DNA of 64,000 bases from an uncultured Candidatus Saccharibacteria bacterium. Its GTDB lineage: Bacteria; Patescibacteriota; Saccharimonadia; Saccharimonadales; CAZDQS01. Under the pieces are notes generated by a model, which was given only the letters and a program-made list of their open reading frames with translations, made no database searches and was not told where the DNA came from. This document shows, one piece after another, positions 16,170 to 25,535 of the stretch. Location of the stretch: assembly GCA_964507855.1 (NCBI GenBank), contig CAZDQS010000001.1, positions 102,121-166,120 on the forward strand. Reading direction: 5' to 3'. The translations under genes and the position numbers were made by a program. Numbering within the stretch: position 1 is the stretch's first letter; each line of letters starts with the position of its first letter.

Positions 16170-17156
16170 ATGGCAAAACGTGCGTTGATTACGGGTATTA
16201 CTGGACAGGATGGCGGTCATCTTGCTGAACTGCTACACGAGAAGGGGTATGAGGTCTTTGGTATCATCCGTGGCCAACACAACCCGCGCAGGAAAGCGAC
16301 CGAGGAAGAATTTCCCTATGTGACGCTCATTGAGGCGGATTTGCTCGACCAGTCTTCATTGGTTCGCGCTATGGAAGTGGCCAAGCCGGACGAAGTCTAC
16401 AACCTGGCGGCGGTGAGCCACGTCGGCTACTCGTTTAAGAACCCACAATTGACCATGGATGTCACCGGCAAGGGTGTACTGAACATGCTGGAAGCCATCC
16501 GCTTGAGCGGTGGCGAGAAGTCGGTTCGGTTCTATCAGGCTTCAACTTCAGAAATGTTTGGAGGTCTCGAGTATAACCGGCCTAAGTCTGGCTATACCGA
16601 AGAAGCAACGTTCCATCCCCGCAGCCCGTACGGGGTGGCGAAGCTCTACGGCCACTGGATTACCAAGAACTATCGTGAGAGCTACGACATGTTCGCTGTT
16701 TCCGGCATATTGTTTAACCACGAGGGGCCACGGCGCGGCGTGGAGTTCGTGACACGCAAGATTAGCAATGCCGTCGCGAGGATTAAGCTTGGCAAACAAG
16801 ACGAAATAGTGCTCGGTGACCTCTGGCCAAAGCGTGACTGGGGTTATGCTGGCGACTATGTGAAGGGCATGTGGCTCATGCTGCAGCAGGACAAGCCGGT
16901 TGATTACGTCCTGGCGACCGGCGAGACGCATTCGATCGAAGACTTTCTGACGCTGGCATTCAAAGAAATCGGCATTGATGACTGGAAGCCGTACGTCAAG
17001 CAAGACCCGCGGTTCATGCGCCCAGCTGAAGTAGACTTGCTGCTCGGCGATCCGTCAAAGGCCGAAAAGGAGCTTGGCTGGAAGCGCGAGGTAGACTTCC
17101 CGGGCCTTGTCAAAATGATGGTCGAGCACGACCTCAAGCTCGAATCAGAATCGTAA
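16170..17156 (+). CDS. gmd: GDP-mannose 4,6-dehydratase
   Basis: 328 aa with MAKRALITGITGQDGGHLAELLHEKGYEVFGIIRG, ...YQASTSEMFG... and SPYGVAKLY (catalytic YxxxK). Confidence 0.92.
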   Translation: MAKRALITGITGQDGGHLAELLHEKGYEVFGIIRGQHNPRRKATEEEFPYVTLIEADLLDQSSLVRAMEVAKPDEVYNLAAVSHVGYSFKNPQLTMDVTGKGVLNMLEAIRLSGGEKSVRFYQASTSEMFGGLEYNRPKSGYTEEATFHPRSPYGVAKLYGHWITKNYRESYDMFAVSGILFNHEGPRRGVEFVTRKISNAVARIKLGKQDEIVLGDLWPKRDWGYAGDYVKGMWLMLQQDKPVDYVLATGETHSIEDFLTLAFKEIGIDDWKPYVKQDPRFMRPAEVDLLLGDPSKAEKELGWKREVDFPGLVKMMVEHDLKLESES

Positions 17157-18107
17157 TTTCTCCTGCTTGTAAGCAACAAAGTCTCGAACGGTTTGCTCAA
17201 TGGGGATAGTGGGTCGCCAGCCTGTTTCTTCATAAAGGCGCTGGTAGTTTCCAAATAGTTCCGTGGGGTCGCTGGGCCGAATGAGCGTCTCGTCCACCTC
17301 AACAGTAATTCTATTCTCAAGTTTCAGCTCTTGCAGGAGCAGGTCGAGAAGTGCTTGGCCGGCGAGGCTTTGGCCGCTGCACACATTATAGGTGTCGTGT
17401 TTGAGGTTGTCGGCAAGCGCAAGGTCGGCATAGGCTCGCGTTATATCCCGCACATCAGTGTAGTCGCGCTTGGTGGTAAGATTGCCCGTCTTAACAACAG
17501 TGCCTTTACGATGAGCTTCCATAGCCTTTTCATATAAATCCGGCAACAAGAAGCCCGGCTCTTGACCTGGGCCGATGTGGTTGAACGGACGGACAATGGC
17601 GCACTTCAGACCTTGTCGTATTAGGTCCTGGCCGGCTTGCTCCATGAGGATTTTACTGAGCGCGTAAGGCGACCCCTCGCTAATAAGCCGGGAATCTTCA
17701 CGAAGCGGCAGAGGTTGATTGGCGTCATAGACTGCGCCTGTGCTGACAGCAATAACGCGCGCCTCGGGATTAACTTCAAGGAGCTTTTTGCTGATAATAT
17801 TTAACACGTTAACATTGGTGATTGTGTAGCGCTCGGGGTCGGCAAATGATTCGCCAACCTTCGCGAGACCGGCAAGATTAATGATAGCGTTTATATTCTT
17901 GAGCGGTAGTTGCGCAACCGCCTCTTCATCCGTAAGGTCGCATTGGTGATAATCGGCAAGCAGCTGGTGGATTTCTGGATGAGCCGGCCCACTATGGCCA
18001 ATCCCAATGACAGCGCTCCCGCGCTGGTGAAGTTCTCGCGCTACATGTCTGCCCACAAATCCGTTAACACCAGTAACCATCACATGCTGCATAGAAGTAG
18101 CGTACAT
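17145..18107 (-). CDS. rmd: GDP-4-dehydro-6-deoxy-D-mannose reductase (Rmd-like SDR)
   Basis: 320 aa with VTGVNGFVGRH, SPYALSKIL, VRPFNHIGPGQ and YNVCSGQ. From memory these closely match Pseudomonas Rmd motifs (ARPFNHIGPGQ, YNVCSGQ). The gene is convergent with gmd. Confidence 0.7.
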   Translation of the reverse strand: MYATSMQHVMVTGVNGFVGRHVARELHQRGSAVIGIGHSGPAHPEIHQLLADYHQCDLTDEEAVAQLPLKNINAIINLAGLAKVGESFADPERYTITNVNVLNIISKKLLEVNPEARVIAVSTGAVYDANQPLPLREDSRLISEGSPYALSKILMEQAGQDLIRQGLKCAIVRPFNHIGPGQEPGFLLPDLYEKAMEAHRKGTVVKTGNLTTKRDYTDVRDITRAYADLALADNLKHDTYNVCSGQSLAGQALLDLLLQELKLENRITVEVDETLIRPSDPTELFGNYQRLYEETGWRPTIPIEQTVRDFVAYKQEKLRF

Positions 18108-18177
18108 GAGCAGGATAAAAAACTAAAGCAGCGCCCCGAATTGCCGTTAGTTAGTAAAACACGTAAAATATAACAAA

Positions 18178-24257: not shown

Positions 24258-24260
24258 CAC

Positions 24261-25535
24261 ATGACACGGATAATCGTTGATATTACTGAGCTTGCGGCGT
24301 GGCAAGGTAAGTTGACCGGAGTGCCACGGGTGATGGACGAGCTGGCTTCACGGTTTGCGTCGCAGGATGACGTGAGCTTTGTTGCCTGGGACCAACTGGC
24401 TAGAGAATATTTTCCTGTTGAGTATAGGGCTGCCGATGAATCCCATCACACAACCGCTCCAACATCCATCCAGCAGTTCAAGCAAAAAGGCGCACGTGCG
24501 ATTGCGGTTGCGAAAAAAATCAAGAACCGCTCAAGGATTGCTCGCAAACTCATGGTGATTCCTGAACGAGCAGCGCGACGCGTACTTGTTCCGACACGTG
24601 AAAACAACAAAGAGAAGATAGTGCCTGTAAAAGGTGATACGTTGTTTATCCTTGCTGACTGGCACAGTAGCGACCCGGTATTTGTTGAACGGGTGGTGGC
24701 ACTGAAGAAAGCTGGTGTTAAACTGGCGCAAATTTCGTATGACTTGTTGCCAGTAGTCGCTCCCCAGTATTCGGGGCATTCTACCGACACACTCAAACGC
24801 TATACCACCACGGTGTATCCTTTGTGCGATATCATATTTGCCATCTCCGAATATACCAAACAAGATATTATCACGTGGTTGAAGCAGCAGGGATTGCGGG
24901 TGCCGCCTATAGAGGTAATGCGGCTGGGTGACGATTTTGCGCTTGCTACTCCGCAGAAGCCTACTGACGAAAGGTTTAATGAGGTATACAAGCGCACCAA
25001 GGACTTCCTGCTCTGCGTCGGTACGGTCGAGGCGCGGAAAAATCATACGTTACTGTACTATACCTATAAGCTTGGCCATGAGCGGGGGATAGAGTTGCCG
25101 CCACTTGTCGTAGTTGGCCGAAGAGGCTGGATGACAGAGAATATTTACGAGATTATTACGACCGATCCAGTAACGAAAGACAAATTTATTTTCCTGCACA
25201 ATGCGACAGATGAGGAGCTGAGCTGGCTTTATCAACATTGTTTGTTTAGTGTGTATGCGAGTTTCTACGAAGGTTGGGGGCTGCCAATTGCCGAAAGTAT
25301 CGCGCATGGAGTACCATGTATAGCAAGCAACACCAGCAGCATGGTAGAAATAGCCGGTGAGCTTATAACATACTTCAGTCCTACTTCAACTGATGAGTGT
25401 CTTGCAGCGATACAGCAATTGCTTGATCCTGCGGCTCTAAAGCGGGCCACAACTAAGCTCAGCAAATATCAACCGCGGTCGTGGGATGAAACCTATGATT
25501 CCGTAAAGGGCCACATTGAGAAAGTTCATGCTTAA
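24261..25535 (+). CDS. glycosyltransferase family 4
   Basis: 424 aa with RIIVDITELAAWQGKLTGVPRV (typical of polymannose/rhamnan-type GT4s) and FSVYASFYEGWGLPIAESIAHGVPCIASN. Confidence 0.75.
   Translation: MTRIIVDITELAAWQGKLTGVPRVMDELASRFASQDDVSFVAWDQLAREYFPVEYRAADESHHTTAPTSIQQFKQKGARAIAVAKKIKNRSRIARKLMVIPERAARRVLVPTRENNKEKIVPVKGDTLFILADWHSSDPVFVERVVALKKAGVKLAQISYDLLPVVAPQYSGHSTDTLKRYTTTVYPLCDIIFAISEYTKQDIITWLKQQGLRVPPIEVMRLGDDFALATPQKPTDERFNEVYKRTKDFLLCVGTVEARKNHTLLYYTYKLGHERGIELPPLVVVGRRGWMTENIYEIITTDPVTKDKFIFLHNATDEELSWLYQHCLFSVYASFYEGWGLPIAESIAHGVPCIASNTSSMVEIAGELITYFSPTSTDECLAAIQQLLDPAALKRATTKLSKYQPRSWDETYDSVKGHIEKVHA

Follow-up and report, generated by a model that had tools for sequence, protein, structure and literature searches.

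Three groups of described systems stand closest to the locus analysed here: the E. coli O9a system, the Xanthomonas wxc D-rhamnan cluster and the S-layer glycan clusters of Gram-positive bacteria. The characterised WbdD of E. coli caps a polymannose chain, and the residues required for its kinase and phosphate-methyltransferase activities are known from mutagenesis (PMC3482155). In Xanthomonas, the rhamnan forms the main chain of the O antigen. The S-layer glycan clusters combine a WbaP-type initiator, Wzm/Wzt, a methyl cap and a Wzy_C O-oligosaccharyltransferase (PMC2943079), and every one of these parts has a counterpart in the 64-kb stretch of DNA that we analysed (the window). An earlier note on this DNA had taken P. 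aeruginosa's common polysaccharide antigen (CPA) as the model; its gene logic of gmd, rmd, wzm, wzt and GT4 genes holds, with Pfam or PDB matches for each part, but a WbdD-type terminator and a carbohydrate-binding domain on Wzt bring O9a and wxc closer than CPA. Judging from these homologies, the window probably encodes an ABC-transporter-dependent, termination-coupled pathway whose product is a surface glycan with a high content of a GDP-derived 6-deoxyhexose, in the most likely case D-rhamnose.

The gene set adjoins the replication origin of a probable Saccharibacteria (TM7) genome. DnaA, YidC and Jag are 75, 57 and 68% identical, respectively, to the proteins of a Saccharimonadales MAG (L007), and the order dnaA-yidC-jag-GT4-gmd-rmd-wzm-wzt-wbdD-GT4, with gmd and rmd convergent, is the same in the Saccharibacteria loci L019 and L005. 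Protein identity and the gene order shared with MAGs make an assignment to Saccharimonadia probable, and this assignment indirectly supports the absence of an outer membrane that had been proposed earlier.

The exporter begins with the ABC-2 permease Wzm (18178..18993, plus strand), recognised as such before, which matched ABC2_membrane (PF01061, 1.3e-12) and is 55-68% identical to its Saccharibacteria homologues. The ATG of wzt (18995..20221, plus), at 18995, lies 1 nt past the wzm stop and is preceded by a GGAGG site. Its product joins an ATPase (ABC_tran, 1.7e-23), already noted, to a C-terminal carbohydrate-binding domain (Wzt_C, 1e-19), which had been overlooked. The best PDB match of Wzt was the 404-residue ABC-transporter chain of 8dku/7k2t (2.6e-68), which we take to be Wzt of Aquifex aeolicus, binding domain included. 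From wzm through a terminal GT-C gene, the operon is tightly spaced (+1, -4, +9, +2, +3 and -8 nt).

Genes for initiation, ligation and carrier recycling lie about 25 kb downstream. The initiating polyprenyl-phosphate hexose-1-phosphate transferase, of the WbaP/WsaP type (53530..54978, minus), matched Bac_transf (1.6e-57), TIGR03025 (354 bits, cut-off 296) and WbaP in the PDB (2e-42); downstream of it, a GT4 (52440..53525, minus; Glycos_transf_1 7.1e-23, Glyco_transf_4 1.3e-12) is a candidate adaptor transferase. The same region encodes the UDP-glucose 4-epimerase GalE (49549..50568, minus; TIGR01179 405 bits, cut-off 262) and the undecaprenyl-diphosphatase UppP/BacA (57304..58101, plus; BacA 7.5e-80), which would recycle the carrier. 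The O-antigen-ligase-like gene at 55002..56375 (plus) does encode a Wzy_C-family membrane protein (1.3e-15) with about nine hydrophobic segments, a candidate ligase or O-oligosaccharyltransferase.

A distance of 25-30 kb, in which other glycosylation genes lie, separates the initiating transferase and Wzy_C genes from the operon, and their tie to it is drawn from gene content. It is therefore conceivable, if rather unlikely, that the two blocks serve separate pathways and that the polymer is ligated to peptidoglycan by an LCP-family enzyme or anchored on a lipid. The analysis covers 64 kb of the genome, and LCP ligases, WecA-type initiators and Wzx flippases may lie elsewhere; moreover, no Wzy_C homologue was found within 10 kb of the module in L005, L009, L018 and L019. 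Homologues of 29-32% identity do, on the other hand, lie directly next to gmd in L001 and, in L007, some 1.2 kb away from wzm; no Wzx-type flippase was found in the window, nor another exporter that could serve a glycan begun by the initiating transferase. Separate pathways would imply a ligase encoded elsewhere, as for streptococcal rhamnose polysaccharides, and a Wzy_C that serves a different glycan. Anchoring in a monoderm had been presented as a puzzle; a precedent with exactly this combination of parts exists in the Gram-positive S-layer glycans (PMC2943079), and we favour a single pathway that ends with Wzy_C.

The gene following wzt (20218..21702, plus) is missing from the genes named in the earlier note, as is a small ORF behind it. 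By homology, its product is a chain terminator of the WbdD kinase/methyltransferase type, and the binding domain of Wzt is the matching part; the alignment to PDB WbdD 4uw0 (1.9e-30) covers both the methyltransferase and the kinase domain. Residues Y58, H169, H170, R243, Y271, D403 and W407 correspond to WbdD Y16, H132, H133, R203, Y230, D351 and W355; these seven are invariant or nearly so among 28 homologues, and every residue that mutagenesis has found necessary in WbdD is kept. The protein is a short form; the C-terminal coiled coil, which in E. coli WbdD sets chain length and recruits WbdA, is absent. The gene does not encode a glycosyltransferase.

Several glycosyltransferases surround the module. 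Upstream, and divergent from gmd, GT4_b (14927..16039, minus; Glyco_transf_4 5.7e-8, Glycos_transf_1 2.2e-7) and GT4_a (13843..14946, minus; Glycos_transf_1 1.3e-32) form a two-gene unit, overlapping by 20 nt, in which GT4_a is second; L019, L005, L007 and L001 have GT4_a homologues (39-53% identity) at the equivalent place, upstream of gmd or wzm. The small ORF after wbdD (21712..22029, plus; 105 aa) is a doubtful gene, tightly packed between its neighbours (gaps of 9 and 2 nt), with no family match and no homologue in any locus fetched. It is followed by a 741-aa glycosyltransferase with an N-terminal GT4 domain (22032..24257, plus), whose Glycos_transf_1 match (7.3e-16) is confined to residues 226-361; sequence searches matched residues 391-741 to no family, and a single-sequence AlphaFold model reached a pLDDT of only 36. 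Homologues of 30-32% identity are present in L005 and L018. The 424-aa GT4 that comes next (24261..25535, plus; Glycos_transf_1 3.3e-16) has homologues (35-37% identity) after wbdD in L019, L005 and L018. Of the three GT4 modules previously placed after wzt, two are thus detectable by sequence in 22032-25535 and the third is not.

The donor specificity of GT4 enzymes is unreadable from sequence, and these could be mannosyltransferases. A mannan or heteropolymer backbone, as in E. coli O8/O9a, with D-rhamnose as a minor, adaptor or side-chain component, would also agree with the polymannose capped by the characterised WbdD, with the presence of ManC in the window and with L007, which has wzm-wzt-wbdD and neither gmd nor rmd within 10 kb. 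We nevertheless consider such a backbone unlikely, as the gmd-rmd pair is flanked by GT4 genes on one side and wzm on the other, here and in several other Saccharibacteria loci. Moreover, Gmd (at least 48% identity) and an Rmd-like gene lie within 10 kb of a WbdD relative in 26 of 58 loci, D-rhamnan producers included, among them Xanthomonas loci matching the published wxc rhamnan cluster. The family of the GT-C enzyme is likewise enriched beside gmd/rmd. A backbone rich in D-rhamnose remains our preferred reading.

GDP-mannose would be supplied by ManC and a phosphomannomutase (PMM)-like HAD protein, both confirmed where the earlier note had named them. The mannose-1-phosphate guanylyltransferase ManC (47692..48768, plus; NTP_transferase 2.1e-41, ManC_GMP_beta-helix) scored 256.6 bits (E 4.4e-76) against TIGR01479, under the cut-off of 372.95; it aligned to model positions 1-344 of 467 and so lacks the isomerase part. 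The HAD-IIB protein (48777..49556, plus; Hydrolase_3, TIGR01484) is of the eukaryotic phosphomannomutase type (PF03332 PMM 8.6e-11, 42.5 bits, cut-off 22.4). Gmd, a GDP-mannose 4,6-dehydratase (16170..17156, plus), matched GDP_Man_Dehyd (PF16363) over its full length (1.2e-123), scored 400 bits against TIGR01472 (cut-off 415), shares 48% identity with its E. coli counterpart and contains the STSEMFG and SPYGVAK motifs.

The Rmd-like reductase (17145..18107, minus; probable start Met6 at 18092), previously listed as part of the module, lies convergent with gmd, the two 3' ends sharing 12 bp. It is an extended SDR with the motifs G13xxG16xxG19 and Y148xxxK152, and the segments VRPFNHIGPGQ (residues 172-182) and YNVCSGQ (residues 240-246), cited earlier, were both located in it. 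Its best PDB matches were 2pk3 (4.9e-38) and 6x3b (8.4e-34), both proven D-rhamnose-forming enzymes, with GalE as the next enzyme class (2.6e-17). The two characterised Rmd enzymes scored 134.6 and 120.7 bits in the structure-database comparison and 136 and 130 bits by BLASTP, against 35 bits for E. coli Fcl and 66 bits for the best GalE. The nearest Rmd homologues, Saccharibacteria proteins among them, are 55-60% identical. The earlier note had set the grouping of the reductase beforehand as a test, and the protein groups with characterised Rmd, not with Fcl.

Talose synthases are Rmd-like SDRs whose substrate is the same 4-keto intermediate. GDP-6-deoxy-D-talose synthase reduces it with opposite stereochemistry. 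It seems to us distinctly unlikely that the product is GDP-6-deoxy-D-talose (the C4 epimer) or some other GDP-6-deoxyhexose, in which case the polymer would be no D-rhamnan. The reductase is just 31% identical to each characterised Rmd, yet those two are mutually almost as distant (34%). In a neighbour-joining tree that took in no GDP-6-deoxy-D-talose synthase, it falls inside the Rmd clade with a bootstrap of only 58%, and that clade also holds the Rmd-like genes of rhamnan-making Xanthomonas. The JGI annotation of close homologues, which carries EC-type Rmd names, points weakly the same way. GDP-D-rhamnose thus remains the most likely product.

The operon continues past 25535, where it had been thought to end, into a gene (25528..27711, plus) whose start lies 8 nt ahead of the final GT4 gene's stop codon. 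It encodes a 727-aa membrane glycosyltransferase of the GT-C fold that carries a beta-sandwich domain at its C-terminus; Wzy_C is therefore not the only candidate membrane transferase, as had been claimed. The family has no Pfam model. An AlphaFold model built from a 40-sequence alignment (pLDDT 91.5, pTM 0.90) gave ArnT (best, 9e-9), EmbA/B/C, AglB, PglB and AftD as top Foldseek matches. D57-E58 is nearly invariant among homologues, and the family, with 945 clusters at E<=1e-30, recurs within wzm/wzt/gmd/rmd clusters.

Its GT2, GT4, flippase-like and Ugd partners lie directly downstream, split by a set of sulfation genes. GT4_c (27718..28836, minus; Glyco_trans_1_4 4.2e-25) is 46% identical to the GT4 of a Methylobacter GT2-GT4-MT21-flippase-like-GT-C operon. 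The flippase-like protein (29780..30748, plus; LPG_synthase_TM, PF03706 1.8e-21; TIGR00374 46.8 bits, cut-off 43.2) belongs to a family that L063 and L072 also have next to their GT-C gene. GT2_a (33359..34297, minus; Glycos_transf_2 3.6e-23), a candidate polyprenyl-phosphate-sugar synthase, has AglJ, PpgS and dolichyl-phosphate hexose transferase as best NCBIfam matches, and 20 of 26 loci have a homologue (28-66% identity; at least 42% in 16) no more than 10 kb from the GT-C gene. Only 2 nt upstream of it is the gene for the UDP-glucose dehydrogenase Ugd (34300..35691, minus), which has all three UDPG_MGDP_dh domains; the Ugd-GT2 pair is kept in L072 and L073. GT2, flippase-like and GT-C proteins together constitute a three-component signature of side-chain glycosylation (PMC11127046), and the GT-C neighbourhoods elsewhere point to side-chain addition, not coupling. 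It is thus very improbable that the GT-C enzyme, in place of Wzy_C, moves the whole chain en bloc like PglB/AglB: the translational coupling of its gene to that of the preceding GT4, fold matches that include the oligosaccharyltransferases AglB, PglB and STT3, and a carbohydrate-binding-like C-terminal domain would suit that role, but the best fold match, ArnT, uses a polyprenyl-monophosphate sugar, GT2_a homologues are its regular companions, the flippase-like protein completes the signature in the window, L063, L072 and L073, and the enzyme is also present in diderm genomes that already have a WaaL route, Methylobacter and Pseudoxanthomonas among them. Such coupling would involve an undecaprenyl diphosphate donor and a protein or wall acceptor.

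The sulfation set comprises a soluble carbohydrate-type sulfotransferase (28829..29743, minus; Sulfotransfer_1 2.3e-16; PDB 3rnl 3.7e-25, heparan-sulfate 3-O-sulfotransferases ~1e-12) with no predicted membrane segments and an 8-nt overlap with GT4_c, a bifunctional ATP sulfurylase/APS kinase, or PAPS synthase (30807..32534, plus; ATP-sulfurylase 1.2e-86, APS_kinase 4.4e-58, PUA_2 9.6e-56), and a CysQ-like protein of the inositol-monophosphatase family, probably a PAP phosphatase (32542..33357, plus; Inositol_P 4.9e-48). The set is absent from all other loci fetched. The presence of this sulfotransferase and a dedicated source of PAPS within the GT-C sub-module makes a sulfated substituent possible.

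In the pathway we propose, the PMM-like protein and ManC would provide GDP-mannose, which Gmd and Rmd would convert to GDP-D-rhamnose. The initiating transferase would prime undecaprenyl phosphate, probably with galactose-1-phosphate given GalE in the locus, and GT4 enzymes in the cytoplasm would attach an adaptor and then polymerise the chain. The WbdD homologue would phosphorylate the non-reducing terminal sugar and then methylate the phosphate, and this cap would halt growth and tag the chain for the Wzt binding domain, so that Wzm/Wzt exports the capped, lipid-linked chain. Outside the membrane, the GT-C enzyme may attach a side-chain sugar, whose polyprenyl-phosphate donor the AglJ/PpgS-like GT2 would make and the flippase-like protein would flip; with Ugd adjacent to the GT2, the donor sugar is possibly derived from UDP-glucuronate. 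Wzy_C would then take the completed chain off undecaprenyl diphosphate and place it on an acceptor, either a surface protein or some other component of the envelope, and UppP would recycle the carrier. An O-antigen-type pathway in a bacterium without an outer membrane would be well precedented in kind, but undescribed in the Saccharibacteria phylum.

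Judged from sequence, the core of the locus is recognisable as what would be an ABC-transporter-dependent, terminator-gated glycan pathway, an expected type. According to the ORF listing and the profile searches, it opens with gmd (16170–17156, plus strand; PF16363 1.2e-123; 48% identity to E. coli Gmd), facing a minus-strand gene for an Rmd-like extended SDR (17145–18107). These two genes are convergent, their 3′ ends overlapping by 12 bp (17145–17156), and the start of the reductase in the database copy is Met6, at 18092. The same tail-to-tail arrangement is kept in three other Saccharibacteria loci (L001, L005 and L019). 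All on the plus strand, there follow wzm (18178–18993; ABC2_membrane PF01061), wzt (18995–20221; ABC_tran PF00005 and a Wzt_C PF14524 carbohydrate-binding domain, 1e-19), a gene for a WbdD-type protein with methyltransferase and kinase domains (20218–21702), a 105-aa ORF without family (21712–22029) for which no homologue was found in profile searches or in the fetched loci, a gene for a 741-aa protein with a GT4 domain in its N-terminal half (22032–24257), a 424-aa GT4 (24261–25535; Glycos_transf_1) and a GT-C glycosyltransferase by predicted fold (25528–27711).

The likely start of wzt is the ATG at 18995, after a GGAGG site and 1 nt past the wzm stop, and the spacings between successive genes from wzm to the GT-C gene are +1, −4, +9, +2, +3 and −8 nt. 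Since the GT-C gene overlaps the last GT4 gene by 8 nt, the operon extends beyond 25535, where the earlier note had closed the module; its gene list, passing directly from wzt to GT4 modules, had also overlooked the WbdD-type gene. Scans for promoters and terminators returned numbers at chance level (29 versus 26.2 expected and 22 versus 19.9 expected) and thus carry no information on transcription units. The GC content is 0.455–0.485 over the stretch from wzm to the PAPS synthase gene (18000–32000) and 0.51–0.55 in gmd/rmd, the origin-proximal genes and the distal part of the window, a pattern like that of O-antigen and slg clusters, for which variable cores of low GC have been reported.

In Gmd, the PF16363 match spans positions 1–332 of 332 (413 bits), the TIGR01472 score of 400 bits is slightly below the cut-off of 415, and the catalytic residues T126 and E128 (in STSEMFG) and Y154 and K158 (in SPYGVAK) are present. 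The earlier note had called the adjacent SDR, in which both motifs it quoted were found, Rmd-like, a reading to be given up if it grouped with Fcl or another SDR class, and the bit scores and the placement of the enzyme in the Rmd clade speak against such a grouping. Its nucleotide-binding motif GxxGxxG (G13-G16-G19) and its Ser/Thr...YxxxK residues (T123 in VSTGAVY; Y148/K152 in SPYALSK) align in position with those of the Rmd structures from Aneurinibacillus thermoaerophilus (2pk3) and Pseudomonas aeruginosa (6x3b). These two gave 134.6 bits (4.9e-38) and 120.7 bits, compared with 105 bits for the 'putative epimerase' 4lw8, 66.6 bits for the best GalE and 50.9 bits for Gmd (1rpn). An Fcl identity was rejected in view of a score of 34.7 bits against the NCBIfam Fcl model, which has a cut-off of 500, and of a direct BLASTP match to E. 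coli Fcl of 35 bits (E 8e-7). BLASTP gives the reductase 31% identity with each of the two characterised Rmd enzymes, which themselves share only 34%. In a neighbour-joining tree, the reductase forms a clade with its Saccharibacteria homologues (100% bootstrap), which falls into a larger clade, with a bootstrap of only 58%, containing both characterised Rmd enzymes and the Xanthomonas/Stenotrophomonas Rmd-like proteins; Gmd, Fcl, RmlB, GalE and RmlD lie outside. The closest Rmd homologues (55–60% identity) include proteins from Candidatus Saccharibacteria MAGs. The enzyme is Rmd-like, and its product may be D-rhamnose or, with the other configuration at C4, 6-deoxy-D-talose.

The best structural relative of Wzt is a 404-residue ABC-transporter chain (8dku/7k2t, 2.6e-68), which we take to be Aquifex aeolicus Wzt with its carbohydrate-binding domain; the alignment covers query residues 65–372 of 426, running past the ATPase domain into the C-terminal region. 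For the protein encoded at 20218–21702, the best PDB matches are four WbdD entries (1.9e-30 to 4e-30), with an alignment that spans both domains. Mutagenesis of E. coli O9a WbdD identified Y16, H132, H133 and R203 as required for phosphate methylation and Y230 and D351 as required for the kinase, W355 stacking on Y230 (PMC3482155). In the HMMER alignment, the window equivalents are Y58, H169, H170, R243, Y271, D403 and W407, and among 28 homologues each of these is either invariant or conserved in at least 90%. Given this conservation of the catalytic residues, the protein is predicted to phosphorylate the terminal sugar and to methylate the phosphate, as WbdD does. With 494 residues compared with 708 in WbdD, it ends soon after the kinase domain (the alignment stops at WbdD residue 379, and the kinase domain of WbdD at about 459), so that the C-terminal coiled-coil ruler and the WbdA-docking region are absent, and at its N-terminus some 55 residues form a helical extension. 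None of the 28 homologues, of about 480–510 aa, has a C-terminal extension. This short form of WbdD (about 490 aa) is common to Saccharibacteria, Geodermatophilaceae and Cellulomonas actinobacteria, Legionella maceachernii and Nostoc (loci L008, L010–L017, L021 and L022 beyond the window).

Genes for Gmd (at least 48% identity) and an Rmd-like protein were located within 10 kb in 26 of the 58 loci with a WbdD relative, usually along with wzm and wzt, and many of these 26 loci are from Xanthomonas. The wxc cluster of Xanthomonas (wxcA, wzm, wzt, wxcB..., gmd, rmd) directs the synthesis of an O antigen whose main chain is a rhamnan (PMC13133917). Taken together, these observations point to a WbdD-type cap with D-rhamnan as a recurrent combination, which is also chemically reasonable because D-rhamnose is 6-deoxy-D-mannose.

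As regards polymerisation, two GT4 domains were detected within 16170–25535, where the earlier note had counted three GT4 modules. The third is unsupported, as the C-terminal half of the 741-aa protein (residues 391–741) matches no family in phmmer or relaxed Pfam searches and the single-sequence AlphaFold model of the protein (pLDDT 36) is unusable; this half has a single homologue among the fetched loci. Compared with the P. aeruginosa CPA locus, on which the note had modelled the module, rmd, gmd, wzm, wzt and several GT4 genes are present, with those two GT4 domains in the interval.

No sequence match in Pfam, NCBIfam or the PDB was obtained for the protein encoded at 25528–27711, all 106 homologues of which are labelled hypothetical. 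In its AlphaFold model, built with 40 homologues (pLDDT 91.5, pTM 0.90), it is a polytopic glycosyltransferase of GT-C fold: the top ~30 Foldseek matches in the PDB are all GT-C enzymes, the best being ArnT (9e-9), EmbA/B/C, AglB, PglB, AftD, ALG9 and PMT enzymes, and the C-terminal beta-sandwich matches carbohydrate-binding modules. The pair D57-E58 in the first extracytoplasmic loop is nearly invariant (at least 90% conserved). An exhaustive profile search placed 945 clusters in the family at E≤1e-30 and 3012 at E≤1e-10, and members were also found in Methylobacter and in contigs of unknown taxonomy.

In the window, the GT-C gene is followed by genes for a GT4 (27718–28836), a sulfotransferase (28829–29743), a flippase-like protein (29780–30748), a PAPS synthase (30807–32534), a CysQ-like protein (32542–33357), a GT2 (33359–34297) and Ugd (34300–35691). 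Parts of this sub-module recur elsewhere. Across 26 loci of at least 8 kb with a GT-C homologue, and counting partners within 10 kb, a homologue of the GT2 was present in 20 (28–66% identity, at least 42% in 16 of them), usually adjacent, a Wzt in 11, an Rmd-like protein in 10 and a Gmd in 13, the last count including matches down to 25% identity and about 10 at the level of true Gmd (44–52%). In Methylobacter (L063), the GT-C gene closes a GT2–GT4–methyltransferase–LPG_synthase_TM–GT-C run that adjoins wzm–wzt(Wzt_C)–methyltransferase and manB/manC, and in the metagenome contig L064, wzm–wzt(Wzt_C)–methyltransferase is followed downstream by a multi-GT4 gene (1246 aa) whose end the GT-C gene overlaps. 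A further locus (L072) follows the order of the window: GT-C, GT4, an unknown 342-aa protein, LPG_synthase_TM, GT2 (66% identity) and Ugd (47% identity). The sub-module thus has a variable slot, occupied by a methyltransferase in Methylobacter, by the unknown protein in L072 and by the sulfotransferase with its PAPS supply in the window. As its best matches are AglJ, PpgS and dolichyl-phosphate hexose transferases, the GT2 is a candidate for a polyprenyl-phosphate-sugar synthase.

By analogy with the three-component precedents Gtr, gmlABC and GT136 (PMC11127046), the sub-module can be read as a three-component-type system for extracytoplasmic side-chain glycosylation joined to an ABC-transporter pathway. 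With GtrA/B/C, Klebsiella gmlABC, GT136 and streptococcal GacI/J/K/L it shares a GT-C transferase bearing a carbohydrate-binding-like domain, a GT2 as candidate polyprenyl-phosphate-sugar synthase and a putative flippase, here attached to an ABC-transporter polymer cluster. Unlike in those systems, the GT-C family lacks a Pfam model, the flippase candidate is of the LPG_synthase_TM/MprF type and not GtrA/MATE, and a GT4 and a variable modifying enzyme, here the sulfotransferase, are added. The GT-C enzyme was also considered as the main ligase of the pathway, a role set aside in view of ArnT as its best fold match and the GT2 partner in 20 of the 26 loci.

Inserted between the GT-C gene and its conserved GT2 partner is a dedicated set of sulfation genes (28829–33357), which code for a sulfotransferase of carbohydrate type, a bifunctional ATP sulfurylase/APS kinase and a phosphatase resembling CysQ. 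The sulfotransferase is soluble, and its nearest solved relatives are the bacterial 3rnl (3.7e-25) and then heparan-sulfate 3-O-sulfotransferases. No homologues of the sulfation genes were detected in any other fetched locus, and no close relatives of the sulfotransferase were detected in the metagenome scan. The set suggests that a small-genome CPR bacterium may make a sulfated glycan.

Functions expected for initiation, attachment and precursor supply are encoded in the distal part of the window, by manC (47692–48768), a gene for a PMM-type HAD protein (48777–49556), galE (49549–50568, above the NCBIfam cut-off), glmS (50573–52405), a GT4 gene (52440–53525), the gene for a WbaP-type initiating transferase (53530–54978; TIGR03025 above cut-off; PDB WbaP 2e-42), a divergently oriented gene for a Wzy_C protein (55002–56375; Wzy_C 1.3e-15, no match in the PDB sequence search) and uppP (57304–58101). 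Neither a Wzx-type flippase nor an LCP ligase was seen in the window. In other Saccharibacteria, the Wzy_C gene lies beside gmd (L001) or about 1.2 kb from wzm (L007). From gene content and these two loci, we infer that the operon is functionally linked to the distal initiator and Wzy_C genes.

Candidate acceptors are surface proteins, pilins, the wall and lipids. No S-layer or SLH family was matched among the window proteins. A study of Saccharibacteria pili predicted O-glycosylation sites on pilins and called glycosylation in this group unexplored (PMC11623550). The window also encodes a secreted 840-aa protein (36996–39518, minus strand), cysteine-rich in its N-terminal domain and bearing four NBR1-like Ig repeats, without a match in the PDB sequence search; homologues with 30–41% identity adjoin the wzm/wzt module in four Saccharibacteria loci (L001, 2241–4331; L005, 16492–18915; L009; L018). 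This protein could be an acceptor, or it could bind or process the glycan.

Scanning species-representative genomes with the WbdD alignment, we found the closest loci in Saccharibacteria, Saccharimonadales and Saccharimonadia MAGs (35–45% identity). In L019, the order dnaA, yidC, jag, GT4 (minus), gmd (plus), rmd (minus), wzm, wzt, wbdD, GT4 is that of the window, and L005 has the window gene order from yidC on. The window DnaA is 75% identical to that of L007 and 58% to the partial one of L019, and its YidC and Jag are 55–57% and 68–69% identical, respectively, to those of Saccharibacteria MAG loci. By these protein matches and the shared gene order, the window is assigned to Saccharimonadia, which displaces an origin in Firmicutes first suggested by GC content and gene order. 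The locus is conserved next to the replication origin in several Saccharibacteria MAGs. Saccharimonadia have a Gram-positive-type envelope without an outer membrane, and no LPS genes were found in the 64-kb window.

Among known systems, E. coli O9a appears to come nearest to the core as regards mechanism, Xanthomonas wxc and Pseudomonas CPA as regards the sugar, and the Gram-positive slg clusters as regards the envelope setting. With the polymannose systems of E. coli O9a and Klebsiella O3 (Wzm, Wzt, WbdD, WbdA/B/C) the core shares an ABC-2 exporter with Wzt_C on the ATPase, a terminator that combines kinase and methyltransferase and has identical catalytic residues, polymerising GT4 enzymes that include a large multi-domain one, and tight operon packing. 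Unlike them, it has a shortened, ruler-less and N-terminally extended terminator, gmd/rmd, a WbaP-type instead of a WecA-type initiator, added GT-C and sulfation genes, and no lipid A-core acceptor. The gmd, rmd, wzm, wzt and GT4 genes recall Xanthomonas campestris wxc and Pseudomonas CPA; the window Rmd clusters with the Xanthomonas and P. aeruginosa enzymes, and Xanthomonas loci also encode a WbdD relative (27–30% identity) within 10 kb of gmd/rmd/wzm/wzt. Identities are low (about 30% for Rmd, 25% for Wzm and 34% for Wzt), and lipid A-core in an outer membrane serves as the acceptor of the wxc and CPA polymers, unlike in the host of the window.

The slg clusters of Geobacillus stearothermophilus NRS 2004/3a, Paenibacillus alvei and Aneurinibacillus thermoaerophilus L420-91T match the window in their monoderm host, in a WbaP-type initiator working with Wzm/Wzt, in capping of the non-reducing end before export and in a Wzy_C O-oligosaccharyltransferase (WsaB/WsfB in slg). 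The initiator, Wzm/Wzt, cap and Wzy_C transferase are described for G. stearothermophilus and P. alvei, and the S-layer glycan of A. thermoaerophilus contains D-rhamnose made by Gmd/Rmd (PMC2943079). This S-layer glycan precedent, with the same parts, answers how a monoderm can use such a pathway. The window differs from the slg clusters in its WbdD-type cap enzyme, compared with the methyltransferase domain of WsaE, in phylum (Patescibacteria/CPR) and in that no S-layer protein or SLH domain was found in it.

What look like additional systems for extracytoplasmic glycosylation, drawing on polyprenyl-phosphate sugars, lie at 40268–47634. Here, two large polytopic proteins of 685 and 721 aa, both with a GtrA domain at the N-terminus, are each accompanied by a PgfS/ArnC-like GT2, and a flavoprotein of the amine-oxidase family is encoded between them. 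A 960-aa protein with a GDSL/SGNH hydrolase domain and hydrophobic segments at both ends (8234–11116) has a 38% identical homologue near the rhamnose module in L001 (18424–20927). Four consecutive proteins of about 170–200 aa (11128–13811; GC 0.43), apparently paralogous by eye, have an N-terminal membrane anchor and shared cysteine motifs, such as CGRP...LSCS, and no family match. A 452-aa protein (59368–60726) with a cysteine-rich, zinc-ribbon-like CxxC...CxC tail likewise matches no family.

Our literature search found no paper describing this pathway in Saccharibacteria, and nothing relevant on the genetics of the Southlakia envelope. The locus corrects a published attribution of rhamnose in Patescibacteria, which does not fit because the lineage is monoderm: gmd and rmd have been noted in Patescibacteria and their phages and attributed to 'outer membrane lipopolysaccharide' (PMC12911398). 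All functional statements made here are homology-based and cover 64 kb of the genome.

A more far-reaching picture, which we regard as rather unlikely, is that the coat of this ultrasmall, host-dependent Saccharibacterium consists of a methyl-phosphate-capped D-rhamnan with a sulfated or uronic-acid-derived side chain, added outside the membrane by an unrecognised GT-C family working with a dedicated sub-module (GT2, GT4, variable modifying enzyme and MprF-like flippase) that prepares a modified lipid-linked donor. If true, it would represent the first sulfated surface glycan in CPR and a new kind of plug-in cassette by which ABC-transporter-dependent polymers acquire side chains; it would also be a candidate factor in host attachment or in the evasion of phages and lectins.

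The locus shows three variant features, namely a short form of WbdD, an unannotated GT-C family together with conserved partners, and the sulfation insert; of these, the short WbdD and the large GT-C family recurring with GT2 may be of wider use. For Saccharibacteria, which live attached to other bacteria, the locus provides a testable model of a major surface glycan, comprising its composition, capped length, export and attachment enzymes.
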